40,724 bases of DNA from a virus (lineage: Duplodnaviria; Heunggongvirae; Uroviricota; Caudoviricetes), in the IMG/VR virus record IMGVR_UViG_2565956726_000012, positions 1-40,724 of that record; one strand, given 5' to 3'. A program made the position numbers and the translations under genes. Below the pieces are notes generated by a model that was given only the letters and a program-made list of their open reading frames with translations, had not been told where the DNA came from and did not search any database. Each line of letters begins with the position of its first letter. The stretch's first letter is position 1. This document shows positions 6,237-27,918 of this stretch, piece by piece.

Positions 6237-6392
6237 ATGCGTTAAGCACAGCTATATCCGAATTATGGTGGGCTGGGCAGGGGTCCGAAAGGACGCCGGT
6301 ACCACTTAGGCCGGTACGCCAACCTTGTCCAGTTCACCACCAGTAATTGGCGTTGCGGTGGTGATTAAAATCACTAAGTGGAGATAACCACC

Positions 6393-7148: not shown

Positions 7149-7191
7149 TTGCAGACCGGGGGTGAATAGCGTACTATTACCTCAAGGGTAA
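7149..7191 (+). promoter_or_regulatory. Sigma70-like promoter (TTGCAG-17-TACTAT) with operator copy I (TTACCTCAAGGGTAA)
   Basis: Same -10-abutting operator architecture as copy B. Confidence 0.55.
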
Positions 7192-8207: not shown

Positions 8208-8229
8208 AAACAAGGCCGCGAAAGCGGCC
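8204..8229 (-). terminator. Rho-independent terminator for the minus-strand structural operon
   Basis: Stem GGCCGC/GCGGCC with GAAA loop; on minus strand followed by TTGTTTTT. Confidence 0.6.
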
Positions 8230-8243
8230 TGTGACATGTCACA
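8230..8243. repeat. Perfect 14-bp palindrome TGTGACATGTCACA (copy 1 of the GTGACATGTCAC family)
   Basis: Exact self-complementary sequence; same 12-bp core recurs at 25642-25653 and 27907-27918. Confidence 0.8.
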
Positions 8244-8804
8244 CTACATTGATATATGATTCATAAAGTAGCTTAAAGATTTACTTCCCAGAAAAGAAAT
8301 TTCTTTTCCTGGATATGTCGCAATAATTGAGCATGACTTATCCCCGTTAGAGGTAACAAATCCTGAATAACCTACTTGTTCTTTACCATTTTGTTGCTTG
8401 GCTAAAAAGTAGAGGTAGCTTATCTTTTTGCCCTCTGGGTAAAACTCTGCCAAACCAGTATCGGTGATTGAATATTTTATTCTCCCGCCTTGAGTAACGT
8501 TTTCCATCTCAAGTTTAGCTATGTCTTTTCTGTTGTATTCAGCATTGATTTTCCTTTTGAAATCAATGTTGTTTTCAAATGAGTAGGAAGCAACAGTCTG
8601 AATAGATGGGAACACGTTTATCTGGATGCCTCCACAGTCGGCACAGGTATAAAGGTATGAATCAGATGGAATCCCCATAAAAGAAAACTGAGTTACCTTA
8701 AATTTATCGCTATCTCCAAAGTATTGAAGTTCGCATTTAACATTTTTCCCTGCAAAAGAAAATGCAGACATCAATATTGAAACAAAAAATATAATTGCCT
8801 TCAT
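8244..8804 (-). CDS. AT-rich secreted protein (cargo gene), possible superinfection-exclusion or conversion function
   Basis: Signal peptide MKAIIFFVSILMSAFSFAG; markedly lower GC than neighbours; sits after the ejection-protein genes and before the tailspike. Confidence 0.6.
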   Translation of the reverse strand: MKAIIFFVSILMSAFSFAGKNVKCELQYFGDSDKFKVTQFSFMGIPSDSYLYTCADCGGIQINVFPSIQTVASYSFENNIDFKRKINAEYNRKDIAKLEMENVTQGGRIKYSITDTGLAEFYPEGKKISYLYFLAKQQNGKEQVGYSGFVTSNGDKSCSIIATYPGKEISFLGSKSLSYFMNHISM

Positions 8805-8806
8805 TA

Positions 8807-11359
8807 TTATTTACCTAGCATGAACTGCGATGGTGGGATCAGAAAGTCGTTACCCTGCTCACGCTCAACACGGCGCTGATAACGCTCAAGAGAGCCTGGG
8901 TCAAGGGCATCTTGTATCCGGTTCAATATTAAACCATTCATCGCCGTACGAAGCCAGAACACGTTGAGGAATGGCGTATTGTCAAGTGCCGTGCGATACC
9001 AGTCACCCAAATCTGCATCCCCTCTCGTGGTCTGCTGGAGCAGCGTGATAATGCTGTCAGCGTTCGATGCTGCTGGCCCCATTAGCGACGTAACCGGCCC
9101 GGCCCCCATGCGGTTGACCTCGCCAAACATGAAGTCACCCAAGATGCCAAGACCGCCCCCCTGAGATGCGGCTGCGAGAAACGTCTTGGCATCTGCCGGG
9201 CGTGGTGTTTGCCCTTTCAGCATGAGTTTTGACTGCATGGAGATATAACCAAACATAGTCGCCCAGACAAAGAGGTTTGCAGCACCAAGGAAAGCCCCCT
9301 TCCCGTTACGTAGCAGCGCATTCGTCAGCGATCCGGTTTTCGACTCACCAAGCCCAGCAGGAATATAACCACGCCCGAATACTTCGCGTCCTAGTACGTT
9401 CTGCATGAAGCTTGCAGTGAACGATTTGTACTGACCAGCGAATCGTATTGCTTCCCCAGCCACCGTTCCTGGCACCGTGCCCATCTTCATAAACGCCTGC
9501 GTGCGATCGCCAGGCTCTGACATGGCGATATTCAGGCGGTCAAGGATGTAGCCGCGCAACTGCCCTTCCAATTGATCGCGTGCGTCAGCGATAGCGCGCT
9601 GCGTTGGTTTGATCCCCTTACTCTCTACATAACCGGCAATCACTTCGTCAGGCACGCCGCGGATGCCGCTGGTCGTCATGAACTTACGACCTTCGCTATC
9701 GGCCATGTCCATGTTGCGAAAAATTTCCCACTCACGTTCGCCAATACCGTGCAGATCCAGCACGCGTCGCAGGTCTTCCGGTAGCCGCGCATGAGACTGG
9801 TCAGCATTCTTTGCAAGCCAGTTGGTTATCATCATGGCGTTGCTGTTGCGACCGCTCTCGGTCCAGAAGTTCATGAGGTTGTACTTAAAGAAAAGCTGCT
9901 GCGCGCGACCAAGCTTTCCATTCAGCGTGTCATCACCAGATATGCGCCGGATGATTTCCTGCGTCATGGAGTCGGAATAAACTCCGATAGAGGAAAGGAT
10001 CTCTTTCTGCTCCGCGCTGTTGTAACGCGTGAAGCGGCCTCTCATAGCACCAAGCAACGCCTGCATAAAATTCTGCCCTTGGTAGCGCATCTCGGTAGCG
10101 GCGATAGGCACGTCGTTAAACGATGAGATTACCGCGCCACCAAGTTGGCTCATACGCAACCAGCCGCGTACAGCCGCCGACGCATTGGCCCAGCCTACGC
10201 TGCCAGGAATATTTAGCGAGCCGTCAACCTGCGGCATTACGGTACGGTTAATGCGACGCACCTTCGTCATGTAGTCAGCCAACGCTGCCGGTCTTCCGGA
10301 TTTGCTGATATCTTCAGCAATGGCGTCCGTCAGGTACTTAAACATGTTCTGTGGGTTAGTGCCCAGTACGCGCATCATGCCCGTTGTGCGGGCAGCGCTG
10401 TTTAAGCCACCAAACAGCGCTTCTCGCAGGCTGCCGGTGCCGAATTGCTGGTTGTACTCGTGCCACGAGATACCATCTTTGAAGTGCAAAATTCGCTCTT
10501 GGCTGGCGCGTTTAGCTGCGTTCGCCGATCCCTTAAAGCCATTCATCCAATCGGGCTTTTCAGATGTAAGATGCACGCCGGAAGCCAGCCCGTTATAAAT
10601 GTTACGCATGAACTGCTCGCGGTCAGCCACGCCGTCAAAAGTGCGCTCATCAAGGCGCGGGAGAATAGCATTTCGCCATGCTTCATAACCTGCGGCGCGG
10701 ATCTTCATGATGTCGTGTGACTGGCGCACTATATAGCCCGGCTCTTTGCGTATCCATGCCCCGGCGCGGTTCTCATCAATGCGCGCAGTTTCCTGCCATT
10801 TCATGATGATTTGTGCAGCGCTTACGGATTGCTTTGTCATACCGTCAGTTGACTGCCCGCGCCCTATGCGCCACATTGCATCGGCAATTTCCCGGTCATT
10901 GCTGCCGCTGGCGATGAATTGCACCAGCCCGGCACGGTCAAAATCGTAGTTGATACCGGAATGATACTTGCCGCGCAGTTGCGCCACCTCCGAAGATACC
11001 GACCGGCGGGCGCCGGTACGCGCATCGTTGCGGCCAACCAGCATTGCTTCAAGCCCGATATCCGGGCGGTCTTTCCAGATAGTACGAAGCTCTCTAAGTC
11101 GTTGTGCGGCAATACGGGCGTTGATTGCCTTATTGCGAGCCTCAATCTGTTTTGCCAGCATATCGGCATTGCTCAGTTCTTCCGCTGCGCGCATCGCGGC
11201 CTCTTCCAGAGACAGCGCCTCATTGGTCGCCAGAATTCGCCTAGTGGTGTCGTTCATGTCACGCACCAGCGACTCCATCTCATCGGAAGAAAGCTCGCGA
11301 CCAGCGGCAGCATTTACACTGCGCTCGCACTGCGTCAAAAATTCGTTTGCTGCCATCAC
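8807..11359 (-). CDS. Large internal virion/ejection protein
   Basis: 850 aa; in operon after the transglycosylase-domain protein; overlapping start/stop with neighbours. Confidence 0.65.
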   Translation of the reverse strand: MMAANEFLTQCERSVNAAAGRELSSDEMESLVRDMNDTTRRILATNEALSLEEAAMRAAEELSNADMLAKQIEARNKAINARIAAQRLRELRTIWKDRPDIGLEAMLVGRNDARTGARRSVSSEVAQLRGKYHSGINYDFDRAGLVQFIASGSNDREIADAMWRIGRGQSTDGMTKQSVSAAQIIMKWQETARIDENRAGAWIRKEPGYIVRQSHDIMKIRAAGYEAWRNAILPRLDERTFDGVADREQFMRNIYNGLASGVHLTSEKPDWMNGFKGSANAAKRASQERILHFKDGISWHEYNQQFGTGSLREALFGGLNSAARTTGMMRVLGTNPQNMFKYLTDAIAEDISKSGRPAALADYMTKVRRINRTVMPQVDGSLNIPGSVGWANASAAVRGWLRMSQLGGAVISSFNDVPIAATEMRYQGQNFMQALLGAMRGRFTRYNSAEQKEILSSIGVYSDSMTQEIIRRISGDDTLNGKLGRAQQLFFKYNLMNFWTESGRNSNAMMITNWLAKNADQSHARLPEDLRRVLDLHGIGEREWEIFRNMDMADSEGRKFMTTSGIRGVPDEVIAGYVESKGIKPTQRAIADARDQLEGQLRGYILDRLNIAMSEPGDRTQAFMKMGTVPGTVAGEAIRFAGQYKSFTASFMQNVLGREVFGRGYIPAGLGESKTGSLTNALLRNGKGAFLGAANLFVWATMFGYISMQSKLMLKGQTPRPADAKTFLAAASQGGGLGILGDFMFGEVNRMGAGPVTSLMGPAASNADSIITLLQQTTRGDADLGDWYRTALDNTPFLNVFWLRTAMNGLILNRIQDALDPGSLERYQRRVEREQGNDFLIPPSQFMLGK

Positions 11360-13053
11360 ATCCCCCGGTTAATCATACAGGCGGCAAATGCCCGGAAAGC
11401 GTTGCTCATGCTATTGTCGCTGGCGTCGGCACGAATATCATTGAGTTTCTGGCGCAACGTGGTCGCAAGATCAGGGTTATCGACAGCGATATCGTCAAGC
11501 AGGGCGTTACTCAGGTTGAGCTCGTTATCAAGGTCTGCAGCGGCAGCGGTAATTTCATGATCTGCCTTTTGCGTTTCTTGATAAACCCGATCGGCTGTTT
11601 CGCTTGCTGGGCGAGCCGTTTCATCAACCTGCCGTGCCGGGTTCTGTATGCGATGGATGGCGCGTTCACGCAGTGCCGGTTTGTGCAGTTCATAGAAGGG
11701 CTCAACATCTGGGCTACGTCCTTCCATCATGTGTGCCAGCGCAGCGCGATACGCCTGCTGGTTCACGTTCCAGTCAGCATCCCTGATGGCGCTTGCGGCA
11801 GTGCGAACTGCGCCAGCGACCGGCGACATCTGCATGCCGTCCAGGATCTGCTGCGCACGCTCGGAAATGGTGACTTTCAGGTCGTCGGGGATCTCGCCGC
11901 GGGAAATCTGAGACTGGCGCCAGCGCGCCTGCTCTGCTGTCGCGTTCTGCTCCAGCGATGTGTTGATCTCCTGATTGCGTGCAGCGATGGCGTCTTTCTC
12001 GGCCTGAATCTCTTTCAGTGCCCTAGAGCGCGCATCCTTAAACTTCATCCGCTGCCCCTGATACTTTTTGGTGCGCTGCTGCAGCGTCGCATCAAGCGAG
12101 TCAGCATGACGTTGATTAGCCGCAAGCTCGGCACGCAGGTCGGCAACGTTACCGATCTGACCGCTCTGTAATTCCTGCTGGCGCGCCATATAGTCAGGAA
12201 CCACGTCGTCATAAGCCCGGCTGTATGCGTAGCTCTCCGCTTCACTGGAAATGGCCGCCGCCAGATCTGCGTTAGCGCCAACCTCAGGGATATTCACGCC
12301 CGCCGGAATGTTGTCAGGCGTTATCACCGGGGTTGGCTGCGCATCGCCAGAAAACGCCGGGGACTCTCCCGTTGCAGCATCGGGAACGCGACGCGGTCGC
12401 ACGATATCGGCGATAAGGCCGCCGCCGGCATGCATTAGACCGCCAGCCATCGTGTTAAAGAAAGTACTTTCCAACGCGTTGCTATAGGTGAAGTCGTCAC
12501 CTTCCGCCGCCGCTGCCAGCCCGGTAAGCGGCACGGTCACCACCGCCTGCGCTGCCCCCATGCGTGCACCAGCAACAAATCGCTCGCCAAATCGGCCAAG
12601 CACAGAAGCCGCCTTTGCTTCTCCAGCGAACGGAACCAGCGCCAGCGCCACGTTACCAGGATCTGCCATTGAACCAGCTAGGCTGGCTGCGAAATTAAGC
12701 GGCGTGGCTACCCATCCGCTCGGTGCCGACATCGCGATCTGCTGGCGTGCCAGAGAATCTTTGCGTTCGGCAATAACATGATCGAGAAAAGCCTGCGTAA
12801 CGCCAGAATCTGGCACGTTTATGCTCTTTACGCCGTACTGCTTCAGGAGCTCATCCGCTTCCTGCTTGCTGATAACTGTAGAGTTTGGGTCATTCGCCAG
12901 CGAGTCGGCCTGCGCAAAGCGGTAGCCGGACATGACCGGCCCCTCTTCAAATCCCTGCTTAAGGGAAGAAAGCAGCGATTCACCAAGCCCTGCTGGCGCG
13001 TTGCCAATTGGCTGGTTAATTCCCTGTCCCGGATCATCTGTGTAAATTGGCAT
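11356..13053 (-). CDS. Internal virion/ejection protein
   Basis: 565 aa; Ala/Gln-rich predicted coiled regions; operon position between two large internal proteins. Confidence 0.6.
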   Translation of the reverse strand: MPIYTDDPGQGINQPIGNAPAGLGESLLSSLKQGFEEGPVMSGYRFAQADSLANDPNSTVISKQEADELLKQYGVKSINVPDSGVTQAFLDHVIAERKDSLARQQIAMSAPSGWVATPLNFAASLAGSMADPGNVALALVPFAGEAKAASVLGRFGERFVAGARMGAAQAVVTVPLTGLAAAAEGDDFTYSNALESTFFNTMAGGLMHAGGGLIADIVRPRRVPDAATGESPAFSGDAQPTPVITPDNIPAGVNIPEVGANADLAAAISSEAESYAYSRAYDDVVPDYMARQQELQSGQIGNVADLRAELAANQRHADSLDATLQQRTKKYQGQRMKFKDARSRALKEIQAEKDAIAARNQEINTSLEQNATAEQARWRQSQISRGEIPDDLKVTISERAQQILDGMQMSPVAGAVRTAASAIRDADWNVNQQAYRAALAHMMEGRSPDVEPFYELHKPALRERAIHRIQNPARQVDETARPASETADRVYQETQKADHEITAAAADLDNELNLSNALLDDIAVDNPDLATTLRQKLNDIRADASDNSMSNAFRAFAACMINRGM

Positions 13054-13054
13054 G

Positions 13055-15676
13055 TTATCGTCCTGATTGCTGGCCGTTCTGGAAAATGTTAATCAGGTTG
13101 TCGCGCTGACTTTCTGCGCTGTATTCCTTAGACTGTCCGGGAGTATATTTCACCGGAGTATCAATGAACTTGGTAATGCTGTTCCATACTGATCGGTTGG
13201 TTGTTCCCAGTTTCGCCAGATCGTTGAACGGCACCGTAATCGGGTTGCCGTCGGCACCGTTGACGATCAGCCCGTTGAGCATCAGGGTAAGTCCTGTTTC
13301 GTCGCTGTTGGTAACCCACTGCGCATTATCACGAATGCGGGAGATACTCTGCTCACGGTTGACCTCATCAGGTAGCCTTGGGTCACCAATAAGCGGCATA
13401 ATCTGATCTGCTGACAGGTTTTTCAGATACGCATTGGCACCATCGTTAACGTCACGAATATCTATCCCTGCACGATTAGGTAGCCGCCAAGTGCCATTGG
13501 TCTGGTACTGCTCGCCGAGGATGTCCTGATACGCCTGTTTTGCTGCATCAGACGCCGACATTCCGCGCTGCATGTTGATGTAAGTAAGTCGTTTTCCCTG
13601 CTCGTTGAAGTTATTCCACACGGCAGTGCCACCAGGCTGAACAACCATCGTGCCAGCAAAATCTTTCGATTGGTCATTCCATGACGAGTCGGCGCTATCC
13701 GCGTCGGTTTTCTCAAGACTGCCGCGTAAGTCAGCAGTTTTAACGCTACGGTTTTGCCAGAGCGCATTTGCCGCGCGCGGGTTCTCGGTAGCCATGACAA
13801 CCTGCAACGCAGGATAAGCGCTCTTCTGAACCTGCTGCATCACCTGATCCGAGTATTTGCCGAACGACTGCGCCACCGACTGAATGGCCTTAACGCTAGA
13901 TTCCTGCGTGTTGTCAATACGCTGCAGTACATCATTGACCATGGACTCCGGTAAAACTTTTTTGCTCATTATCCCCAGGCGGTCTTTTTCAGACTGTATG
14001 CGAGAAACTAGGTATTCACCAGATGAAGGGTCATTCAGGTACTGCTGGAATGCAGCCTGCACAACCGGAGAGTTTTGTTGCAGCCATGCCCCCGGATCCG
14101 CTTCCCGCGCCTTCAGTACCTGCCCAAGCTTGACCTTTGCCGATGCATAAAGCTCTGCTTTGTATTTAAAGTCAGGGTCGTTTTCCTGCGGTGCCATTGC
14201 CTGCACGGCGGCGGTACCCTGCTGGACGTTGCCCTGCATAATGGTCTGATAAACAGGTTGTAGCGTCATTGCCTGCTGGTATTGCTGGAAGGTTTTTTCC
14301 ATCTGCAGGCGCTCGGCAGGCGCTGCCTGAAGCGGCATAACGGCGGCCCATTCGTGCGCTGAAATAGGCGTCACCTGCTTACCGGCCTCAATTTTGGATA
14401 GGTCGTCCTGCATTCGACTCTGTAGCGCAACGCGACCGGCTGAAGCCTGCATGTCGTACATGCCAGCAACCTTGCTCATCATCTGCGACTTTTTGTCCGG
14501 ACTCATGGCGTTCCAGAATGGCTGTGCGATGAGGTTTTCCATCGTCGCAGATCCAGGAATAGCTCCAGCACTGCCAGTTACTTTTGCCACATAATTGCGC
14601 GTCTCGTCGTATGGGATAGCTGCGGCAAACTGGGCGTTACTGACTTCGCCTGTGCGCGGATCGCCAATCTGTTTAATCCAGCCGTCAACCTTTCCTGGGC
14701 CAGCGTTATAGGCAGCTACTGCCAGAACCGGGTTATTGTCGTATTTCTTCATCTGCGCGCCGAAATAAGCTTGCCCCAAGCGGGCATTATAGCGCGGGTC
14801 ATTCAACCATTTATCGCGGTCCCACGGCACGCCAGCAAGGCGGGAAGCTTCGGGGCCAGTATCTTCCGTCACCTGCGCTACGCCAACAGCGCCTTTTGGC
14901 GACACCAGAGGTGTTCCGTCCTTTCCGTACTGATTTCCGCCACTCTCCTGCCAGATTATTGCAGAGAATAACTGCGCCTCACTCGGTGTATCGGTTACCT
15001 CAATCTTGCCGTTCGGACCCATGATCTGTTGATACATCGGCACATACCACGCCTCCGCCGCACCGTTCGCGGCATTCTCGCGCCACGAAACCCAGTTCTG
15101 TTCGATCTCTTCCTGACTCTGGCCGTGGGCTTCGCCGTAAGCGATGATGCTATGATATGCCTTCAATCCTGCCTGGTTTGCCATTGTCGGGTTACGGAAC
15201 TGCATCGATAGGTTTTTTAGTGTCGCATCCTGCATATCCGCCTCATACTGGCGAACCTGTCCTATTTCGTACCTCCCGGCCTGCGTAGTGAACTGAATGC
15301 GCTGCTGCTGCGCCTGCTGCATGAAAGCATTACGAGCCTGTTCATCCGGCAGCGACACAGCCAGTTGTTCGACCTGAGCATCAAACTGCTGCGTATACTC
15401 CTGACCTTTTCCAATAGCATTTTTCCCTTTCAGGTTAAGCAATCCTGTTTCAGGATTATTCAGCAGATCACTGCTTATCTGACTGAGGTTAAGAGATGCC
15501 TCCTGAGCCAGAGCGATATTGGCACGCTGTTTTGCCTGACCAAAAACATCAATTGCCTCTGCCCCTGCCCGAACAAAAGCATCACCAATACCTGGCTGAG
15601 AAAACGTCTGCAAGCCTGCTGACTGAACTCCACGGCTCTGAACCTGACGGCCGGATACTGTTGGTACGACTGGCAT
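13055..15676 (-). CDS. Internal virion protein with lytic transglycosylase (SLT) domain
   Basis: SLT motifs WQESGGNQ, GVAQV, AAYNAGPG; GGAGG RBS before ATG 15676 (TAATG overlap with upstream stop); track ORF to 15751 is an N-terminal over-extension. Confidence 0.8.
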   Translation of the reverse strand: MPVVPTVSGRQVQSRGVQSAGLQTFSQPGIGDAFVRAGAEAIDVFGQAKQRANIALAQEASLNLSQISSDLLNNPETGLLNLKGKNAIGKGQEYTQQFDAQVEQLAVSLPDEQARNAFMQQAQQQRIQFTTQAGRYEIGQVRQYEADMQDATLKNLSMQFRNPTMANQAGLKAYHSIIAYGEAHGQSQEEIEQNWVSWRENAANGAAEAWYVPMYQQIMGPNGKIEVTDTPSEAQLFSAIIWQESGGNQYGKDGTPLVSPKGAVGVAQVTEDTGPEASRLAGVPWDRDKWLNDPRYNARLGQAYFGAQMKKYDNNPVLAVAAYNAGPGKVDGWIKQIGDPRTGEVSNAQFAAAIPYDETRNYVAKVTGSAGAIPGSATMENLIAQPFWNAMSPDKKSQMMSKVAGMYDMQASAGRVALQSRMQDDLSKIEAGKQVTPISAHEWAAVMPLQAAPAERLQMEKTFQQYQQAMTLQPVYQTIMQGNVQQGTAAVQAMAPQENDPDFKYKAELYASAKVKLGQVLKAREADPGAWLQQNSPVVQAAFQQYLNDPSSGEYLVSRIQSEKDRLGIMSKKVLPESMVNDVLQRIDNTQESSVKAIQSVAQSFGKYSDQVMQQVQKSAYPALQVVMATENPRAANALWQNRSVKTADLRGSLEKTDADSADSSWNDQSKDFAGTMVVQPGGTAVWNNFNEQGKRLTYINMQRGMSASDAAKQAYQDILGEQYQTNGTWRLPNRAGIDIRDVNDGANAYLKNLSADQIMPLIGDPRLPDEVNREQSISRIRDNAQWVTNSDETGLTLMLNGLIVNGADGNPITVPFNDLAKLGTTNRSVWNSITKFIDTPVKYTPGQSKEYSAESQRDNLINIFQNGQQSGR

Positions 15677-16221
15677 TATAATCCTCCGGGTAATCTGGTT
15701 CCTGCTGCTGCCCCGATTGGCGCAGGGGTGCTTTGAGTAAACGGACTCCACGTCCCACCAAACATCTGGTACGCACCGTATGCCTTCAGAGGCGCAGTGA
15801 GCAATGTTGTTGCTGCTCCCACATTCCCCTGTTTACGGGCTGAACTGGCTTCTGCTTTATAGTTGGCAGCCTGAACCTGATAACCGTAAGCCTCGCGTTG
15901 CGCGTTATTCACCGTCGTCAGAGAATCAAGAGCGCCAAACTGGGCAGTGTCGCCAAATATATCCAGCGCGTTACCTGTAGATAAATCAGCGCCGGTAGCC
16001 CCCATTGTCGCCGCCTGTGTACCAAGCCGCTGTCGGGTCTCTCTGCGCCGTTGCTCAGCTTCAGCGTTACCTCTGTTTATTGCATCATTTGCCTGAGCTG
16101 TGGCTATATCTGCGTTCGCTTCTGCAACCTTCGAGGCATACTTTCCCTGTTGGTACTGGGTGTATGCCTGAATGCCACTCATGGCGAGCATTGCGCCACC
16201 AGCAATAACCGGATCGCACAT
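15676..16221 (-). CDS. Internal virion protein (T7 gp14-like position)
   Basis: 181 aa; N-terminal hydrophobic segment then Ala/Gln-rich region; operon position. Confidence 0.5.
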   Translation of the reverse strand: MCDPVIAGGAMLAMSGIQAYTQYQQGKYASKVAEANADIATAQANDAINRGNAEAEQRRRETRQRLGTQAATMGATGADLSTGNALDIFGDTAQFGALDSLTTVNNAQREAYGYQVQAANYKAEASSARKQGNVGAATTLLTAPLKAYGAYQMFGGTWSPFTQSTPAPIGAAAGTRLPGGL

Positions 16222-19761: not shown

Positions 19762-19817
19762 AAGTTTCTATACTCCTGCAATAAAGGGGCCGAAGCCCCT
19801 TGTCTGATTCGCGAGGC

Positions 19818-20153
19818 TTACACGCCCAGTTCTTTACGCTTATCTGCGATCTTCTCGCGGAGCGTTTCTGCTTTGGCGTTATGGTGTGGCTTCTCGTTAA
19901 AGAGCAATTCGTACTCTTCACGGAGCTTATCCAGTTCACCATCATCTGACACATCGTTGATGATTTTGGTGCTGGTTGCTGCCATTGACACCTTTCCCGC
20001 TACCTTTGCTTTTGCCTGTCTGGCTGCATCGTTAACAGGTTCCAGTGCGCTACCAGGCTCACCTTCGTATTCGATTTCTGCCCCCTCCGGCCACAGAGTG
20101 TTATGGATATGAGAGAGGCGCAGAACGCGGTATCTTGGTTTCTCACCTGACAT
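19818..20153 (-). CDS. Hypothetical virion-module protein
   Basis: AAGGTG RBS before ATG 20153; between capsid-region genes and tail tubular A. Confidence 0.45.
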   Translation of the reverse strand: MSGEKPRYRVLRLSHIHNTLWPEGAEIEYEGEPGSALEPVNDAARQAKAKVAGKVSMAATSTKIINDVSDDGELDKLREEYELLFNEKPHHNAKAETLREKIADKRKELGV

Positions 20154-20163
20154 CAATATCACC

Positions 20164-20601
20164 TTAACCAGTTACTTTTGAGCGGATCGGATACGGCGTA
20201 TTGGCATCAACATCAAGATTGATACCCGCAGTGAATTTGCCAGCCGTTAGTGGGCCAGTTGCGACGGAGTAGTTAACACGCAGATATCGCTGAACACCGG
20301 CTGGCACCTTTGCAGAAACAACTCGCTTACCTGCTGTCAGGGTGGCCTTTGCCAGTGCGCCACTATCATAAATAGTGGACCATGAGCTGTTATTCTCACT
20401 CGTCTGCAACTGGATGTTTACAGTTGCCTCACCACTTGCCGTGGCGGCTTCGTTAACCAGCGCCCAAAACTCAAGCGGGTAACCCACACCGATATCGCGA
20501 CGGTTTCCGTCAATTGGACCGAGATCGATTACTTCAGTAGAAGCCGCGGTATCAGTTACCGCCTGTGCTTCGGAGAACATCAACAGTTTGTCGGTGATCA
20601 T
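20164..20601 (-). CDS. Hypothetical structural protein (possible head decoration or accessory)
   Basis: 145 aa immediately downstream of major capsid gene; GGAG RBS after stem-loop. Confidence 0.5.
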   Translation of the reverse strand: MITDKLLMFSEAQAVTDTAASTEVIDLGPIDGNRRDIGVGYPLEFWALVNEAATASGEATVNIQLQTSENNSSWSTIYDSGALAKATLTAGKRVVSAKVPAGVQRYLRVNYSVATGPLTAGKFTAGINLDVDANTPYPIRSKVTG

Positions 20602-20616
20602 CTTCTTTCTCCATTA

Positions 20617-20636
20617 GTGGGTCTGTTACGACCCAC
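20617..20636 (-). other. Stable stem-loop just after the major capsid gene (mRNA stabiliser or attenuator)
   Basis: Stem GTGGGTC/GACCCAC with 6-nt loop, no U-tract. Confidence 0.5.
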
Positions 20637-20652
20637 TGGTTAATAACAGGCG

Positions 20653-21645
20653 TTACACCACACGGGCTTCTGTTTCCAGAAGCGCATCAGTTTCACGGAT
20701 TGGTACACCACGGAATGAAGTCCACCACTCGCCTTCTGTCTCTTTTACGCTGATCGCCAGAGATGTTTTCTCCAGAGATTGCAGATCAAGAGCCTGGCCT
20801 ACAGTGCGGTTCATGTAGAACACCGGGCGACCCATTCCACGGTTTGGAATGCGATGCAGTGCTTTAACCATCAACTTCGCAATATTTGCGGCAGAGGAAG
20901 GTTCTGAAAGATTGCTGACATCGATGTTTGCAATGCGAACAACATAACGCCAGTCACGCAGAGCAAGTCCGTTGTCCCATTTGTAATGGGTGCGATAGCC
21001 TTCGTACTTGCCGCCATTAGCATCTTCCAGTGTCACCTGGCCTTTATCTTCCATCTGGATGCCAGCCTTCTGCCCTTTCGGGAAGATGCCATGCACGGTG
21101 TTTTCGCCCCACACCACTAACCAGATTGAGGTGTTATCTGTACCCGTGCCACCAGCATCAATGATGTTCTGAGCATTACCCGCAGACAGGCTGGAATAGC
21201 GGGAGGACAGTCCCATAAACTGCTGAGGGTTAACGCTGGAATCACCATAAAACAGTGTCTGCGCCATCTGCTGATTCATCGCTTCAATAAATGCGCGGTC
21301 TTCAGACAGGCGGAATTCGGCGGTATTACCGTTCAGATCAGCCAGTGACTTATCGACTTCAGCATAGGTTTCCAGCATGCCAACGGAATCGGTGACCTGC
21401 ACTGTGGTTGATTTGCTTGGCTGTACACCATAGTTCAGCAAACGCCAGGTAGCTGAAGGTAAACCAGAACGAATGGTGGTTCGGTGTCCGGTAGGAAGGT
21501 TCCCTTCGACAAAAGGCATATCCTGAAGGATCGGGTTAGTTTGACCGAGAAGCTCGATAATCTTATCGACTTTCCCGTTTGGATCGACGCGCTTACCCCA
21601 GTCAGCCAGCGTTAGCGCAGTTAAGCCTTTAACAGCCATTGTCAT
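20653..21645 (-). CDS. Major capsid protein
   Basis: 330 aa directly after scaffold gene; position and size; followed by stem-loop. Confidence 0.7.
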   Translation of the reverse strand: MTMAVKGLTALTLADWGKRVDPNGKVDKIIELLGQTNPILQDMPFVEGNLPTGHRTTIRSGLPSATWRLLNYGVQPSKSTTVQVTDSVGMLETYAEVDKSLADLNGNTAEFRLSEDRAFIEAMNQQMAQTLFYGDSSVNPQQFMGLSSRYSSLSAGNAQNIIDAGGTGTDNTSIWLVVWGENTVHGIFPKGQKAGIQMEDKGQVTLEDANGGKYEGYRTHYKWDNGLALRDWRYVVRIANIDVSNLSEPSSAANIAKLMVKALHRIPNRGMGRPVFYMNRTVGQALDLQSLEKTSLAISVKETEGEWWTSFRGVPIRETDALLETEARVV

Positions 21646-21653
21646 TTCCTCTC

Positions 21654-22355
21654 TTATTTGCCATAGAGCACTTCGGCCGCACTACGCTGGCCTTCATTAC
21701 CACCGGTGACCATGCCATCTTCAGACATCGCCTTTCCGATTTTCACGAACGTTTTGACCAGATCAGGGTGATTACCCAGCCCGGTGGTGTTCAGATATTC
21801 TTTGAGTTCAGGTGTCCCGAACTGGTCAAGCGCACGCTGTGCGGCGCTAAGGTTAGAAATCAACTTGTCGCCACCGATTTCTTTGTCAGCTTTTACATCC
21901 GCAGCCCACTGCTCGGTTGTTTTCTGCCAGGCTTCTGCCTGGCGCTGCTGAACACCTGCCAGAATCTTCGGATAAGCATCAACCAGCTTTTGCGCTTGCT
22001 CGTTGGTCAGGTTAAGTTCTCGCGCCACCGGCTCGAATTCCTTCAACGCTTCTGTATCCAGCTCTACGCCTTCGGCAGCCTGAAACTCGTACTTCTCAGG
22101 CGCACCCTCTGGTTTATCGCCGTCCTTTTTTTCATCCTGCTTATCGTTTTCAGGCTTTTTGTCATCAGCAGGTTTATCGCCATCAGCAACAGGTTGTGGC
22201 TTATCACCTTCCTGTTGTGATGGATCACCAACTGGAGCAGGGTTATCACCTGCAGGCGCTGACGGTTCTGACGCAGCCGGAGCTGCTCCACCATCGACTG
22301 GTTGCTCATTGCAAAGACGGCTATACAGCAAACGCTCAAATAAATTCATGATCAC
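21654..22355 (-). CDS. Scaffolding protein
   Basis: Acidic low-complexity N-terminus (D/K/P/E-rich), helical C-terminus; between portal and capsid. Confidence 0.65.
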   Translation of the reverse strand: MIMNLFERLLYSRLCNEQPVDGGAAPAASEPSAPAGDNPAPVGDPSQQEGDKPQPVADGDKPADDKKPENDKQDEKKDGDKPEGAPEKYEFQAAEGVELDTEALKEFEPVARELNLTNEQAQKLVDAYPKILAGVQQRQAEAWQKTTEQWAADVKADKEIGGDKLISNLSAAQRALDQFGTPELKEYLNTTGLGNHPDLVKTFVKIGKAMSEDGMVTGGNEGQRSAAEVLYGK

Positions 22356-22648
22356 TCCTGTTCACTGGCCTCTTTGGCCATCTTCAAATACTGTTCAGGG
22401 CAATGCGCCATAACGCGCTGAAACAGTTCCAGCGCCAGATTGCGTTGCCCCTCATTAAATGCCATTGCCATAGCGTCCATCGGTGAGATAGCGGAAAACA
22501 CACGGCCTTTCTCCAGCACCGACCAGACAACGCGACGCCCCTGTTCACTGCTCATGACAAAGCGAATGTCATCAATTTCACGCTGTGCCATGTCACGTTG
22601 CTTACGGGCGTTTTCTTCTTTCAGTTGATCGTCTTCGTAATCTGTCAT
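22352..22648 (-). CDS. Hypothetical head-module protein
   Basis: 98 aa; translationally coupled to portal (ATGA overlap). Confidence 0.45.
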   Translation of the reverse strand: MTDYEDDQLKEENARKQRDMAQREIDDIRFVMSSEQGRRVVWSVLEKGRVFSAISPMDAMAMAFNEGQRNLALELFQRVMAHCPEQYLKMAKEASEQE

Positions 22649-24324
22649 TGTGATTGCCCACCCTGACCACTAACTGCATTCGCCATAGCTGACAAAACAC
22701 TCGGATCCGAAGTTTTAGCTTCGCTTAGCGTCTTGGCACCCTGTGCCGCCGCCATCCCCATCGCCATCATTTGTTGCTGCTGTTGTTGCTGTGCCCGTTG
22801 CTGGCGAGCCTGCTCAACCTGTTCCTGCGGAACAATGACGGTTGGAGACACTCCGGACATATCAGCGAATGCATCGATCGCCTGATCAACGTTGAGTTTG
22901 TCGAGAGCTTCTGGTTTCGCTTGCGCAAGTTGACCAATGAAGTTAACCGTGGACGCCAGACTGGACAGGCCGATAGACTTCTGCGCCTGAGCCATGACGG
23001 AAATGTATTCGACCTTCAGGGGCATACCTTCCATCGCGTCAGGCGGTGGCGGCAGCATGTTTTTACGCACCATCATCGAGAAAGCGCGGTCAATGAGAGG
23101 GTTAAGACATTCGTCGTTCAGACGCTCCAGAACCGGCCCCAACATCAGAAGTTTTTCTTCTTTCATTTCGATCACCGCTTCAACAGGCATCGAGCGGGTA
23201 TTGATGTTCTGCAACATCATGAACAGATCGACAAAGTAGGCGCTGTTAATGATTTGACGAGTGTCCTGAATGTCTGCTACCAGATCTGCTGTACTGGGGT
23301 TAACCAGATAAGCAGGCCTGAAACCATCCTGACCAGTAATCTGATCGATATACGTGATGTCGCCAGGAAGAAGGGAGGCGCGCTGATTCTTGAGGGAAGT
23401 CGGAGCAACCATCGGCGGATTGGTGGCTTTATCAATCAACTGCGACTTGCGCTTCTGGAGAAGCTGCAATGCCTTAACAGGTCCAAGCGCCAGCATACCC
23501 GGGCATGATGATCCATAAACATCTTCGCCATTAACTTCCCAGCGCGGAGCCATAATTGGAAACTCATCAAATCCGGACTCACGCAACAACTTGTCGTTAT
23601 CGCCACCAACCTCGTAATAAACCGATTTGAATGGCTTGTTCTTGCTATCCAGCTTCGATGTATCGCGGTCAATGTTCGGGTAAACCGAATGCATCACGTC
23701 AATCCACTTCTCGTAGGTGCCGCTTTCCCACATGCTTTTTACGGATTCGCTGACGTTATTTAGCCCGAACTCCTGAACAAGCTGACGAACAGTCATAGAG
23801 AACTTGCGAAAACAGGTGTCCACACTGCCACGAGGTGAGTTAGCCAGGTAGTAACTGCCTATCGGGAATGGCATTGTGCGAATGATGTCCTCGTCATCCT
23901 CCAGCACCGCCATTGCACCAGTGCTGTATGTGCCGAGGCTTCCGTATAACTGCGGAAGAGACTGGTAGAGATTCGACTTATTGAACATATCGTTCATGCG
24001 GTTCTGCACCGCCTCGAGCCACAACTTAACAGGACCATAATCCATCATTTCAGGATCTGGCGTAGCCAGGCGAAACCACGGACGCGCAGGGCTTGTGATG
24101 CCTGACATCATGCCGCTGGCGAGAGTGCGCGCCGCCATAGTCCCGGTCGAATCAATAATGCGTGTATTGCGTCGATCGTTACGGTTGACCTCAGAAGTCA
24201 GAAAGCGGGAACCACGCGGGTTGATGTAATCACTCAACTCGCGCCAGTGCGGCTCGAACGACTGACGCTCGCTTTCAAGTTGTGCGAACTGTTTGTTCAA
24301 TCGCTCTTTAGTTGTTTCCGCCAT
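22645..24324 (-). CDS. Portal protein
   Basis: 559 aa; position after terminase; poly-Q C-terminal tail; GGAG RBS 8 nt upstream. Confidence 0.8.
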   Translation of the reverse strand: MAETTKERLNKQFAQLESERQSFEPHWRELSDYINPRGSRFLTSEVNRNDRRNTRIIDSTGTMAARTLASGMMSGITSPARPWFRLATPDPEMMDYGPVKLWLEAVQNRMNDMFNKSNLYQSLPQLYGSLGTYSTGAMAVLEDDEDIIRTMPFPIGSYYLANSPRGSVDTCFRKFSMTVRQLVQEFGLNNVSESVKSMWESGTYEKWIDVMHSVYPNIDRDTSKLDSKNKPFKSVYYEVGGDNDKLLRESGFDEFPIMAPRWEVNGEDVYGSSCPGMLALGPVKALQLLQKRKSQLIDKATNPPMVAPTSLKNQRASLLPGDITYIDQITGQDGFRPAYLVNPSTADLVADIQDTRQIINSAYFVDLFMMLQNINTRSMPVEAVIEMKEEKLLMLGPVLERLNDECLNPLIDRAFSMMVRKNMLPPPPDAMEGMPLKVEYISVMAQAQKSIGLSSLASTVNFIGQLAQAKPEALDKLNVDQAIDAFADMSGVSPTVIVPQEQVEQARQQRAQQQQQQQMMAMGMAAAQGAKTLSEAKTSDPSVLSAMANAVSGQGGQSQ

Positions 24325-24338
24325 TTCAATGACTCCGG

Positions 24339-24545
24339 TTACTGACCAAGCAGCGTTTTACCGCTGGTATTAGCGGTTGATGTGTCGCCCTGAGAACCGG
24401 TAAGCAGCGTAGAACTACGACCAGCAGCAGCGCGACGGCGACGTGTTTCTTCGTCGCGGGCATCAACAACGGCGGCATCCTGCTCCTGTGGTGCTGCCTG
24501 AACTTCTGGTGTTGCAGGCACTGATGGTGAGCTACCCATGCACAT
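24339..24545 (-). CDS. Small low-complexity ORF upstream of portal (hypothetical)
   Basis: GGAG RBS; its initiation region TCAATGACTCCG is duplicated in front of portal; coding status uncertain. Confidence 0.3.
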   Translation of the reverse strand: MCMGSSPSVPATPEVQAAPQEQDAAVVDARDEETRRRRAAAGRSSTLLTGSQGDTSTANTSGKTLLGQ

Positions 24546-24604
24546 ATCAATGACTCCGTACGCAATTAAATTATTACCAATTTAACCACATATGATTTAT
24601 TTAT

Positions 24605-24641
24605 CGTAGAAGGTTGACATTTAACGCGTGAATTATTACCT
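24605..24641. promoter_or_regulatory. TTGACA -35-like element plus operator copy C (TTACCTTTCAGGTAA)
   Basis: Identical 15-bp core to copy A; lies between portal-side operon and the tRNA island. Confidence 0.5.
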
Positions 24642-24972
24642 TTCAGGTAACTAAAGAGCTCATTCTGGTTACTAACCTGACTGGCTTGTCGTTAAATTAA
24701 ACAGGTGGAGTGAGCTTTTATTTTGAGCAGTACGGCGTATGGCACATGCGCCGATAGCGGTCTGGATACGTTTAAGGGGCACCCTCCCTTGCTCGGGCAA
24801 ACGAACCAGGTAGCCGGAATGTGCAAGTCGAGCGGTTTTATTCCGCGCACGGGGATTCACCATCCCGGCGATTCGGTGTGACGCCTCGGAAGAGACGAGG
24901 GTACAACGATGAGAGCATTTATGGAGCCGCGACAAAGTGTGGCGCCTTAACAGGCTAAGTGCTCTCAGCGTT

Positions 24973-25049
24973 GTGGCATTAGCTCAGTCGGACAGAGCAA
25001 CCGCCTTCTAAGCGGTTGGTCGCAGGTTCGAATCCTGCATGCCACGCCA
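24973..25049 (+). tRNA. tRNA-Arg (anticodon UCU), phage-borne
   Basis: 77 nt cloverleaf: 7-bp acceptor stem GTGGCAT/ATGCCAC, D-arm GCTC..GAGC, anticodon loop CTTCTAA, T-arm GCAGG-TTCGAAT-CCTGC, discriminator G plus CCA; closely resembles argU-type tRNA. Confidence 0.9.
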
Positions 25050-25092
25050 GAATCACGCCTAAGGACCGTGATGCCAGAAGTTCCAGGGGCTT

Positions 25093-25134
25093 GGCGGTGA
25101 TGGTTTCCCTTGAAGAACTATCACCGCCCTTTTT
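25093..25134 (+). terminator. Rho-independent terminator after tRNA
   Basis: Stem GGCGGTGAT/ATCACCGCC followed by CTTTTT. Confidence 0.55.
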
Positions 25135-25179
25135 ACAGCAGGACGCCATTGCGATGACTTCATGCTGTAAACCAGTACA

Positions 25180-25203
25180 GCCCGGTTCGCCGGGCATTTT
25201 TTT
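25180..25203 (+). terminator. Rho-independent terminator
   Basis: Stem GCCCGG/CCGGGC with TTCG loop followed by ATTTTTTT. Confidence 0.7.
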
Positions 25204-25214
25204 AAGGTGAGATC

Positions 25215-25637
25215 ATGAAAACAGCCGACATGCTAGCTAAATATCTAAATGAATGGCCGTGCAAATATGTACGCATTGTTCAGGGTGATGACTCAATTTT
25301 TTATGGTGTTTTTGCAGGAAATGAAATGCTTTGTGAAGCAATTCCAGGTGAGCGACTTGCCGGGTTAACGCTTAGCGATGACCATGGAATAGGAGTTACT
25401 TGCCATGACTGGATTTCAGCGCAGAAAACTGAAATGGAAAAAGGCAATGTGTTTGATATTTCTCGCGCTGTATACGCCAAAGAAAAAAGTGATGATGATT
25501 ACATGCGCGAAAACTTATACAACATGAAGTTACAATGCCTGGCTGAAGTGCTTAGTAAAAGATCTTTACTTGATGTGGTTGGTGCTGAGCAGGACGCCAA
25601 GGCAATCAACGCCGCATTCGATAAAATAACCTTCTAA
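25215..25637 (+). CDS. Hypothetical protein (140 aa) in the plus-strand island between portal and terminase
   Basis: AAGGTGA RBS 5 nt before ATG; convergent with terminase; flanked by terminators. Confidence 0.6.
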   Translation: MKTADMLAKYLNEWPCKYVRIVQGDDSIFYGVFAGNEMLCEAIPGERLAGLTLSDDHGIGVTCHDWISAQKTEMEKGNVFDISRAVYAKEKSDDDYMRENLYNMKLQCLAEVLSKRSLLDVVGAEQDAKAINAAFDKITF

Positions 25638-25641
25638 CACC

Positions 25642-25653
25642 GTGACATGTCAC
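25642..25653. repeat. Palindrome GTGACATGTCAC (copy 2)
   Basis: Exact 12-bp palindrome 5 nt after the stop at 25637. Confidence 0.8.
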
Positions 25654-25657
25654 AAAC

Positions 25658-25686
25658 AGCCAGCCGATGAGCTGGCTTTGTTTTAT
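25658..25686 (+). terminator. Rho-independent terminator in convergent intergenic region
   Basis: Stem AGCCAGC/GCTGGCT, loop CGATGA, followed by TTGTTTTAT. Confidence 0.65.
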
Positions 25687-25727
25687 CCTCATCAGAGGAT
25701 ATCAACGACATTATCCCCACCAGCGGA

Positions 25728-27203
25728 TTAAGCATACGGGTCATAATCTGTGATGGCCTTGCCTTGCTGGTTCTGCTGCCCAGGAATTCGCAGACGCTTC
25801 GACACAGGGAAAGCAAACGTCAGCAGTAGCGCATCGCCTTTACCCGGCGAACGCCCAAGCCGCTCCTTGATATCTTCCTTCGGTTCGATAACGATTTTAC
25901 CGTCCACACGAACTTTGTACTCTGCCGCTGACAGGTCGTCTGCAGTTTCCTGGTCATCCAGCATGCCGCCCAGCCTCAGCCATGTCTTACATGAGTTGAA
26001 CATCTCCCCACGCTTGTTAAGCATCTGCGGGTCAGTGGACGCACCGCCGAACGGAACAAGTTGCCATGTACGTCCCCAGCCATCACCGATTGACTTCAAA
26101 CCGGTTCCGTAACCGAAGTCGATGAACACCGCGTCAGCCTGATACTGGTCTTCAAAGTCAGCGATACGCTTCGCCATAATCAGATCGTCGGTGGTCTTGT
26201 TACCAGTCCATAGCACCTTACTGTGCAGCCCCTGCCGCAGGTATATCACCGCGTCATCAACGCCTGAGTATGCCGGGTCAACGCCGATTATCACCGGAGC
26301 ATGTGCAACCTGCGCAGCGGTTACCACCCGTTTCATTGCCTCATCAGTAAGACCGGTAGGGATAAACTGCAATTCAGATGCATCAGGGAATATGCCGCGC
26401 ACACGGATTTTAACGAAGTCGCTATCTTCCCCGTAGTCATCAACCCATTTCTGCAACTGCTGTTTGTTAGTGCCTTCCACCGTCCGGCTGTCAATCTGCG
26501 CAGTTTTCCAGCGGTGTTTATATTTGCGGAAACATTCGCGGAAACGCCCGGTGTTACGTGTAGGGTTTCCGAACGCTACCCAGATAATCTCAGTGTCTTC
26601 GTCCGTAAGCGCACCCTCAGCAACTTCCCACACCAGATCCGCAATGTTCGACGCTTCATCGAATACCACGATGATGCGTTTGCGCTCGTTGTGTAGTCCG
26701 GCGAACGCCTCAGTGTTGTGCTCAGACCAGGGGATTGCGTCAGCTCGCCACCGCTTGTCGTGCCCAGGGTCATTGCTGTACATCGCGGTAGCGGTACAGG
26801 TAAACCAGTCTTTCGTGATAGCAAGGTTTGACCACTTGATAATTTCCGGCCAGGTCTTCGTTCGTAGCTGGTTGTCGGTGTTGGCGGTCACCACGACCTT
26901 ACAATCCTCGCAAGTGGACATGCCCCAGTTGATCAGCATTGAGATGAATGCGGATTTACCAATACCGTGACCAGAAGCACGTGCCAGCATAAGCGGCTGA
27001 TATCGCGTCTCTGGATTCTGCAGGTGATCACGTATCTCTCGGAACGCATCAGCCTGCCACTGACGTGGGCCGGTAGCATGTGCCAGTTCAGTCCCTTCTT
27101 CCCCCCACGGGAACGCATAGAGGGCATAGCCAAGCGGATCGTGAGTGAACCCTGCAATATCCTCGATCAACTGCTCTTCAGGAGATAACGCTGTATCTGT
27201 CAC
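25728..27203 (-). CDS. terL: Terminase large subunit
   Basis: Walker A-like ARASGHGIGKSAF; ATPase plus nuclease architecture; 4-bp overlap with small subunit. Confidence 0.9.
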   Translation of the reverse strand: MTDTALSPEEQLIEDIAGFTHDPLGYALYAFPWGEEGTELAHATGPRQWQADAFREIRDHLQNPETRYQPLMLARASGHGIGKSAFISMLINWGMSTCEDCKVVVTANTDNQLRTKTWPEIIKWSNLAITKDWFTCTATAMYSNDPGHDKRWRADAIPWSEHNTEAFAGLHNERKRIIVVFDEASNIADLVWEVAEGALTDEDTEIIWVAFGNPTRNTGRFRECFRKYKHRWKTAQIDSRTVEGTNKQQLQKWVDDYGEDSDFVKIRVRGIFPDASELQFIPTGLTDEAMKRVVTAAQVAHAPVIIGVDPAYSGVDDAVIYLRQGLHSKVLWTGNKTTDDLIMAKRIADFEDQYQADAVFIDFGYGTGLKSIGDGWGRTWQLVPFGGASTDPQMLNKRGEMFNSCKTWLRLGGMLDDQETADDLSAAEYKVRVDGKIVIEPKEDIKERLGRSPGKGDALLLTFAFPVSKRLRIPGQQNQQGKAITDYDPYA

Positions 27204-27796
27204 TGATTGCCATCCTGACGTTCTTTCAGTCTCTTCCTGGCTGCCGCTATGCGATCAGCAATTGTCACATTCACATTAACATCCAGGCGTTCTTTGAACG
27301 CGTTGACATCAACATGCTTACCAATCAGCTCAAGGTTCTTCACCTTGTCAGGCCATTTAATTTTTTTGAGGATTGTCTCTATCGAATCCTCGTTCATGTT
27401 CATGATGGTCGATGACAGATCAAAGCCGCTAAGCGTAGTGCGCCAGATTTTCGGCCACTCGCGGATTGGTTTAAGGCTCCCATCGTCGTTGAGGATGTCG
27501 ATCACGTCCATCTGGTCGATCTCCACCAGGCGCATGAGAACGTAATCAGCACTGACGCGCATTCGTTTGTTGCGCTCCTCCATCAACTCGGCAATCCGTT
27601 TTTGAATGCGTTCATCGCGCATCATGACACTGGCTTTAACTGCCGCTGTATTTGGGGAGAATCCTGCGTTAATCGCTGCCTGAGTCTGGTTTTCAGGCGT
27701 TTTGATGTATGACTGGCAATAAGCCTCCTGCATTGCTGTTAGTGGCTTAAATTGCGTTGATTTGCGTTTATAGGTTTTAGGTTCAGCAGGCATCAT
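27200..27796 (-). CDS. terS: Terminase small subunit
   Basis: Conserved LTAMQEAYCQSYIKTPENQTQAAINAGFSP region; start at ATGATG 27796/27793; track extension to 27874 crosses a terminator hairpin. Confidence 0.8.
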   Translation of the reverse strand: MMPAEPKTYKRKSTQFKPLTAMQEAYCQSYIKTPENQTQAAINAGFSPNTAAVKASVMMRDERIQKRIAELMEERNKRMRVSADYVLMRLVEIDQMDVIDILNDDGSLKPIREWPKIWRTTLSGFDLSSTIMNMNEDSIETILKKIKWPDKVKNLELIGKHVDVNAFKERLDVNVNVTIADRIAAARKRLKERQDGNQ

Positions 27797-27813
27797 AACC
27801 ACCGTGGTAATTG

Positions 27814-27828
27814 TTACCGTTGTGGTAA
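27814..27828. promoter_or_regulatory. Operator copy J (TTACCGTTGTGGTAA) in the terminase upstream region
   Basis: On the minus strand preceded by TATTAT, the same -10-abutting arrangement as other copies. Confidence 0.5.
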
Positions 27829-27840
27829 TAATACCATGCA

Positions 27841-27866
27841 AAATAAAGCCGCCATAGTTGGCGGCA
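27841..27866 (-). terminator. Rho-independent terminator just upstream of terminase genes (tR-prime-like)
   Basis: Stem GCCGCC/GGCGGC with 6-nt loop; on minus strand followed by CTTTATTT. Confidence 0.5.
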
Positions 27867-27906
27867 GTATTCAAAATCCATCAAATTCATCATGCATAAT
27901 CTACTC

Positions 27907-27918
27907 GTGACATGTCAC
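27907..27918. repeat. Palindrome GTGACATGTCAC (copy 3)
   Basis: Exact 12-bp palindrome overlapping the stop codon of the zinc-ribbon protein gene. Confidence 0.8.

Follow-up and report, generated by a model that had tools for sequence, protein, structure and literature searches.

A recurrent palindrome at transcription-unit ends of a phiV10/epsilon15-like prophage and its probable phage-encoded ribbon-helix-helix binder

We analysed a palindrome that recurs in a 40,724-nucleotide (nt) stretch of viral DNA (the window; positions 1 to 40,724 of the IMG/VR record IMGVR_UViG_2565956726_000012), which, judging from its sequence, is a phiV10/epsilon15-like (Uetakevirus) prophage of E. coli whose phage map runs along the window's minus strand. 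The three exact copies of this palindrome, GTGACATGTCAC, are probably operator sites of the phage's own 112-amino-acid (aa) ribbon-helix-helix (RHH)/zinc-binding protein, encoded at 27915-28253 (-). The recurrence, which an earlier note on this DNA had pointed out, is real and more general than that note could see. The elements concerned are listed below, and the duplex YGTGACATGTCACR is taken as the candidate target of the 112-aa protein.

27906..27919: site A, C-GTGACATGTCAC-A; one arm holds the TGA stop of the regulator gene (27915-27917, minus strand)
25641..25654: site B, C-GTGACATGTCAC-A; between the stop of a reverse-oriented cargo gene, 25215-25637 (+), and the terminator that it shares with terL
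8230..8243: site C, T-GTGACATGTCAC-A; immediately after the stop of the last open reading frame (ORF) of the structural operon, 8244-8804 (-)
27915..28253, minus strand: regulator gene; 112-aa protein of the epsilon15 gp49 / phiV10 p55 / N15 gene 46 family, the proposed site binder
27840..27865, minus strand: terminator A, GCCGCCAACTATGGCGGC then TTTATTTT; closes the early-right unit, 41 nt downstream of site A
25658..25687, plus strand: terminator B, AGCCAGCCGATGAGCTGGCT then TTGTTTTATC; 4 nt from site B, its A-rich other side facing terL
8205..8230, minus strand: terminator C, AGGCCGCTTTCGCGGCCT then TGTTTTTA; 0-1 nt from site C, closes the structural operon

A scan of the window returned exact copies at 8231-8242, 25642-25653 and 27907-27918, where the earlier note had accurately placed them. 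The naive expected count is 40724/4^12, or ~0.002, and none of 100 dinucleotide-preserving shuffles contained any copy; these shuffles, together with the exact conservation across genera despite divergent flanks described below, bear out the view that the copies are beyond chance. The copy at site C extends to a perfect 14-bp palindrome, TGTGACATGTCACA (8230-8243). With up to two mismatches allowed, the sole extra match was GTGCCATGTCAC at 22585-22596, which has one mismatch, lies within a coding region and is at chance level. The early region of the window also contains a lone GTGAC-N5-GTCAC (GTGACAACTTGTCAC, 31477-31491), which is probably due to chance; an equally rare match occurred in 4 of 100 shuffles.

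All three copies have a stop codon on one side and an intrinsic terminator on the other. Copy C adjoins the TAG stop (8244-8246) of the ORF 8244-8804 (-) and is 0-1 nt from the hairpin 8213-8230 (-). Copy B lies 4 nt past the TAA stop of the ORF 25215-25637 (+) and 4 nt ahead of the hairpin 25658-25677 (+), which is also downstream of terL (25728-27203, minus strand). Copy A includes the TGA stop of the ORF 27915-28253 (-) and lies upstream of terS, with 41 nt between it and the hairpin that follows, 27848-27865 (-). Three rightward units in succession each end at a GTGACATGTCAC site, with a terminator after it. The analogous positions at operon ends beside terminators, proposed in the earlier note, recur in the epsilon15 lineage, where the order of site then terminator is kept: the hairpin follows the site after 0-4 nt at B and C and after 19-41 nt at A, and epsilon15 and Tyrion both retain terminator A, at a distance of 23 nt from their site. 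More generally, a terminator-like element was present within 70 nt in 44% of 213 unique contexts of the motif, compared with 12% of random positions and 16% of positions after long ORFs, an enrichment that comes mainly from the epsilon15-type and P2-like groups.

The sites are conserved in close relatives. E. coli strain YDC107 has a prophage, adjoining guaA, with a site A region 100% identical to that of the window, and this region was found in 501 of 5426 complete E. coli genomes (~9%). Epsilon15 (Salmonella) and Tyrion (Enterobacter), with ~77-82% DNA identity to the window over 29-54% of a 12-kb query, each have three exact copies at orthologous positions with changed flanking bases. In phiV10, copies B and C are exact and copy A, which spans the record ends, has one mismatch; TL-2011b has conserved sites A and C (A exact, at the same position) and lacks B, with a different cargo gene there. 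Across 80 close viral loci (1.37 Mb) we counted 131 GTGAC-NN-GTCAC matches, all of them at A or B in the position-listed loci, and site B was present in 52 of the 80, at about +2.26 kb from site A. The palindrome is unmarked in both reference annotations, though the adjacent terminators are marked there.

Homology among these mosaic relatives breaks exactly at site C (8242/8243) and within 7 nt of site B, and the record YDC107_2 matches the terminator and the palindrome only. Just past site C (window positions 8243-11359) are ORFs of 186 aa (PHROG 11983) and 850 aa. A megablast of 8243-9500, which covers part of these ORFs, against the phage collection gave no match, and the sequence on the opposite side of site C matches TL-2011b at 98%; as judged from these alignments, the two results together indicate a module swap at site C, with its junction at the palindrome.

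We found the motif linked to one gene across phages. With the 112-aa protein as query, tblastn detected homologues in 154 records, from phages of Vibrio, Escherichia, Salmonella, Klebsiella, Yersinia, Aeromonas, Enterobacter and Pectobacterium. The first base of the site precedes the stop of the regulator gene by 1 nt in 133 of 186 viral loci, which puts the TGA inside the GTGAC arm. A profile scan of bacterial genomes with a 4-sequence alignment gave 55 further loci in ~50 Enterobacterales species, with 78 sites against 1.0 expected; the same 1-nt offset was seen in 32 of them. In the viral and the bacterial-genome loci alike, the sequence on both sides of the gene-site pair is unrelated. The carriers include Citrobacter, Klebsiella, Pantoea, Erwinia, Pectobacterium, Providencia, Morganella, Xenorhabdus, Rahnella and Serratia. 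Two of the bacterial-genome loci are labelled Pseudomonas and Advenella, and nearly all carriers found are phages or prophages of Enterobacterales, Vibrio or Aeromonas. The 49 N15-like loci held 105 sites (0.84 expected), and the 55 P2-like and related loci held 56 (0.89 expected). The pairing spans podoviruses, the myovirus ZF40, N15-type plasmid prophages and P2-like phages; examples, with protein identity by tblastn, are given here.

ZF40, myovirus, 67%: GTGACATGTCAC exact three times, one copy 2 nt past the gp22 stop
N15 and phiKO2, linear plasmid prophages, 35-37%: three copies of GTGACTGGTCAC or its complement, their positions conserved and one of them on the gene-46 stop
Vibrio phage K233, unclassified, 31%: GTGACGCGTCAC once and GTGACACGTCAC twice, one site being 19 nt upstream of terS (site end to ATG)
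Yersinia vB_YenM_42.18, P2-like, 39%: one exact site and one with 1 mismatch, 33 bp apart

The product of 27915-28253 had been put forward in the earlier note as a candidate binder, a proposal favoured by the co-occurrence of the motif with its homologues in very different phages, where the site usually overlaps the homologue's own stop. We infer from these sequence patterns that the 112-aa protein binds the sites. Because the TGA stop is inside the site, the gene and that site would form a cassette, with one or two more sites placed elsewhere in each genome. The cassette lies directly upstream of an epsilon15-type terS in 15 loci (within 1.5 kb) and beside a P2-type portal gene in 6-9 loci; in 8 loci a NinB homologue follows it within 1.5 kb, an arrangement like that of lambdoid nin regions.

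Some carriers have arrangements of their own. The sites of N15 (28550, 33237 and 39269) and of phiKO2 (9510, 14390 and 20267) are GTGAC(TG/CA)GTCAC at equivalent positions, which are, in order, the promoter/leader of the antirepressor operon, the inside of repA and the gene-46 stop. They are not the partition sites of these prophages, which are GTGCGACCACGGTCGCAC, a different sequence at different positions. P2-like prophages have paired sites, one with a mismatch, 33-34 bp apart (10793-10838 in locus L159, 11675-11719 in locus L007); the L159 pair has the regulator gene on one side and portal gene Q on the other, and a G-rich cos-like sequence lies ~200 bp away. In a further locus (L186, 10279-10360), TTGACT...TATACT and a canonical LexA box, TACTGTTCATATATACAGTA, begin 6 bp after the gene-end site and precede a UmuD-like ORF inserted before terS.

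In its general form the motif reads Y-GTGAC-NN-GTCAC-R. GTGAC-NN-GTCAC occurred 322 times in 3.6 Mb of related loci, against ~3.4 expected, and was the sole enriched spacing; N3 occurred once, each other spacing from N0 to N8 occurred 0-4 times, and everted arms were almost absent. In 217 unique contexts the arms are invariant, the base outside each arm is a pyrimidine in 98%, and the centre is mostly AT, with CA/TG, AC, CC, AG and GC also seen. No compensatory arm changes were found across these contexts. Invariant arms, with a variable centre and flanks and no compensatory changes, point to recognition of the sequence by a protein rather than to an RNA stem. We do not claim that the central dinucleotide covaries with the protein clade, because it differs within clades and within single genomes. 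The motif is not a CRP site (TGTGA-N6-TCACA), as its corresponding spacing is N4 and the positions of the flanking T/A are Y/R only. Nor is the palindrome an intrinsic terminator itself, since it has a 2-nt centre and no T tract; the adjacent hairpins are the true terminators.

The 112-aa protein is labelled as hypothetical in the sources, and its sole family assignment is PHROG 536, 'transcriptional regulator'. It had no match in Pfam, NCBIfam or PADLOC; sequence searches of the PDB gave nothing significant, and Foldseek against the PDB gave nothing. An AlphaFold monomer model (30-sequence alignment; mean predicted local distance difference test score, pLDDT, 80.9) predicts a DNA-binding RHH fold; the N-terminal helix is basic and conserved, and the C-terminal part is rich in Cys. 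The model has the β-strand followed by two helices (β-α-α) of the RHH superfamily. R8, R13, R43, Y50, E54, C79, C82 and T102 are invariant and C40 and C99 nearly so, and these conserved Arg and Cys residues suggest a basic N-terminal helix and a four-Cys metal site. In a set of 1.84 billion proteins clustered at 50% identity, the family makes up 241 clusters, almost entirely of stand-alone proteins of 105-135 aa. We found no functional study of N15 gp46 or epsilon15 gp49 in the literature. Proteomics of a Klebsiella telomere-phage lysogen detected a 'gp46', possibly the N15 gene-46 homologue, among nine phage proteins (PMC12042878).

We compared the protein and its sites with known small DNA-binding systems. 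The RHH repressors, which have short symmetric or heptad operators (Arc and Mnt of P22, CopG, omega of pSM19035, MetJ), share with it the predicted β-α-α fold, the small size and a palindromic operator. The omega heptads, WATCACW, have a 7-bp register, which the 7-bp half-site spacing of the phage motif matches. The symmetry of the site and this spacing are, as sequence features, compatible with the two-stranded sheet of an RHH dimer reading the operator. Unlike these repressors, however, the 112-aa protein has an extra basic N-terminal helix and a putative C-terminal zinc-binding part, its operator lies in the gene's own stop rather than in a promoter, and the sites are at the 3′ ends of units by terminators. 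In a PDB profile search residues 49-108 weakly matched F-plasmid TraR (E = 0.2, non-significant), with the helix, CxxC...C, helix layout of the TraR/DksA C4 zinc fingers. There was no match to Pfam zf-dskA_traR, and, unlike in the CxxC-N17-CxxC finger of TraR/DksA, the fourth Cys is elsewhere and the N-terminus of the helix is tied to the RHH domain.

If the 112-aa protein is the binder, one dimer of it, or two dimers together, would grip the symmetric site. The terminators that close the early-right, terS-terL and portal-to-internal-virion units lie 0-41 nt downstream of the sites in the epsilon15/phiV10 lineage. Since the sites are just upstream of terminators, the bound protein would be placed to change transcription passing the unit boundaries. 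It would sit just upstream of RNA polymerase arriving at each terminator, where it may weaken or strengthen termination, although which of the two is speculative. Alternatively, it may insulate the units from convergent transcription that comes from the reverse-oriented cargo genes, or act as a roadblock to it. We rejected a reverse terminator made of hairpin plus roadblock on the geometry, as RNA polymerase would presumably hit the bound protein before the hairpin is transcribed.

Several observations weigh against, or lend no weight to, operators of the 112-aa protein with a role in termination. The predicted β-strand residues, the usual base readers of RHH proteins, vary between clades while the arms are invariant, and recognition may therefore use the conserved N-terminal helix, or another protein altogether may read the arms. 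A reverse scan of viral contigs with TGTGACATGTCACA, a 14-mer that has a chance background, found a homologue in 22 of 80 partial loci. Some sites are intragenic (in N15 repA, and in ZF40 gp08 and gp12), and in the P2-like and Vibrio groups the nearest site is 0.2-4.5 kb from the gene. Finally, adjacency to terminators is absent in the N15, ZF40 and Vibrio lineages; the operon-end placement described in the earlier note is thus upheld for the epsilon15 lineage and fails in these phages, and no single transcriptional role fits all contexts.

The closest known site is matS, by likeness and not by membership. MatP-containing taxa are Enterobacterales, Vibrio and Aeromonas, and MatP has a four-helix bundle and a coiled coil, in place of which the 112-aa protein has its Cys4 module. 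The two systems have in common an RHH domain in the binder (predicted here), a few dispersed sites per DNA molecule and the same host taxa. The E. coli MatP site is GTGAC[AG]N[TC]GTCAC (PMC3603311). Its half-sites, GTGAC and GTCAC, are identical and likewise inverted in the phage motif, the spacer of which is one base shorter (2 bp, not 3). The phage sites are not 13-bp matS sites (GTGAC-RNY-GTCAC), as 322 of the 323 N2-or-N3 occurrences across the related loci have the 2-bp spacer. They are also found outside Ter, unlike the Ter-confined matS: in the YDC107 prophage beside guaA, a gene which we take to lie outside Ter, and in plasmid prophages such as N15. Comparison of the 112-aa protein with E. 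coli MatP showed no significant similarity (hhalign probability 0.1%, E 0.51; BLASTP E 13), a weak test in which the MatP side is a single sequence; hhalign places the RHH segments of the two proteins in register. It is possible, though unlikely, that the gene and its sites are a phage-borne counterpart of MatP/matS, perhaps an evolutionary cousin, acting as a DNA-organising or boundary system and not as a classical promoter regulator. The three sites might then be bridged into loops matching the transcription units, or host SMC/MukBEF-type machines might be kept off phage DNA; alternatively, intrinsic terminators might be switched on or off from just behind RNA polymerase. The one-base-shorter spacer would hide such sites from host MatP.

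Five other explanations, namely host MatP, an RNA hairpin, recombination linkers, a -35 core and packaging, are each less consistent with the data than operators of the 112-aa protein. We consider it highly improbable that the palindromes are matS-like sites bound by host MatP, through which the phage would exploit or perturb the Ter-macrodomain, MukBEF or ZapB machinery. The N2 spacing is strict, the matS spacing having been seen once in 3.6 Mb; linkage to the stop codon of a phage gene argues for a phage-encoded binder; true matS was reported to be absent from all of 500 Escherichia and Salmonella prophages (PMC3603311); and the YDC107 prophage, with its identical site A region, adjoins guaA. 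In RNA folding, a stem of 4-5 bp forms immediately 5′ of each terminator hairpin, and N15 and some Vibrio-phage sites are just upstream of a Shine-Dalgarno sequence or start codon, as if the palindrome acted as RNA, either as a mini-hairpin on the terminator hairpin (a 3′-end stabiliser or terminator accessory) or beside ribosome-binding sites. However, this stem is very weak, the arms stay invariant in very divergent phages without compensatory substitutions while the bases of the central loop differ, sites are found in either orientation and also within genes, and no Rfam family matched, which makes a role as RNA very unlikely.

The homology breaks at sites C and B and the YDC107_2 match are what passive module-junction or linker sequences, kept by mosaic-phage recombination and devoid of a binding function, would leave behind. 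Yet 12 bp is a short stretch for exchange driven by homology, phages that otherwise share no sequence have the motif together with the same gene, and lineages differ in the central bases and not in the arms; we regard such linkers as a highly unlikely explanation. The order of elements around site A resembles the lambda Q module, in which the regulator is also the last early gene and is followed by a site, a terminator, and then terS and the late genes. With the regulator gene in the place of the Q gene, GTGACA could be a -35-like element and the palindrome a bidirectional promoter core, site A being a late promoter followed by a terminator in the Q-type style; GTGACA-18-CATGAT at site A, GTGACA-18-TATGAT at site C, and TAAATT 17 nt after site A in epsilon15 and Tyrion would fit such a core. 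This is extremely improbable. The promoter-like matches at the sites are no commoner than in shuffles, and those at site A, where a terminator is present downstream, are weak; no conserved -10 stands at the proper distance at B and C in other phages, and the terminator hairpin abuts B and C. The protein also has no homology to the Q family (a Q-family search with it gave no match). The arrangement differs from the lambda Q module in its two further sites at late-unit ends, and ZF40 and N15 carry a homologue of the 112-aa protein alongside a Q-like protein. Packaging (pac/cos) sites were rejected, as the motif occurs in phages with unrelated terminases and is far from cos in N15 and ZF40.

A second palindrome, TTACC-N5-GGTAA, was present in the window in 10 exact and 5 one-mismatch copies against 0.68 expected; its equivalents are annotated as repressor-binding in the epsilon15 record.

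Exact copies of TTACC-N5-GGTAA: 5728-5742, 6109-6123, 7177-7191, 24636-24650, 27814-27828, 32346-32360, 32408-32422, 34739-34753, 35451-35465, 35513-35527

Several copies stand just upstream of unit starts: before terS (27814), before the portal operon (24636), before the tailspike gene (5728) and before the isrK/C4/antirepressor operon (6109), with several more in the immunity region. TTACC-N5-GGTAA, in several copies, marks unit starts, and GTGACATGTCAC marks unit ends. Rfam models for isrK (67 bits) and C4 antisense RNA (66 bits) match at 6160-6236 and 6261-6344 (+), directly upstream of a Bro-N/antirepressor ORF (6378-7103, plus strand); this is a P1-type c4/ant immunity module, the operon of which heads towards site C. 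The ORF 7379-7951 (+), in the cargo region that separates the antirepressor gene from site C, has a YafO-type toxin domain (Pfam PF13957, just over the cut-off). A tRNA-Arg gene (anticodon TCT; 24973-25049, plus strand) lies between terL and the portal operon, beside the cargo gene that ends at site B.

To our knowledge, the control of late transcription in phiV10/epsilon15-like podoviruses has not been established; a candidate regulator and its exact candidate sites are now named at three unit boundaries. RHH regulators with palindromic operators are an already known kind. What appears new, from the model, is a family pairing the RHH fold with a Cys4 module and, from the sequences, an operator embedded in the gene's own stop codon and a matS-minus-one motif, placed beside terminators in one lineage; the motif strings were not found in any phage context in the full-text literature. 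The compact gene-plus-operator cassette, for which curated databases have no family, has moved among plasmid prophages and the genomes of podo-, myo- and siphoviruses, across ~50 species of Enterobacterales as well as phages of Vibrio and Aeromonas. Its near-identity to matS raises the question of the origin of MatP/matS, or of interference with it, and bears on the reported absence of matS from prophages.

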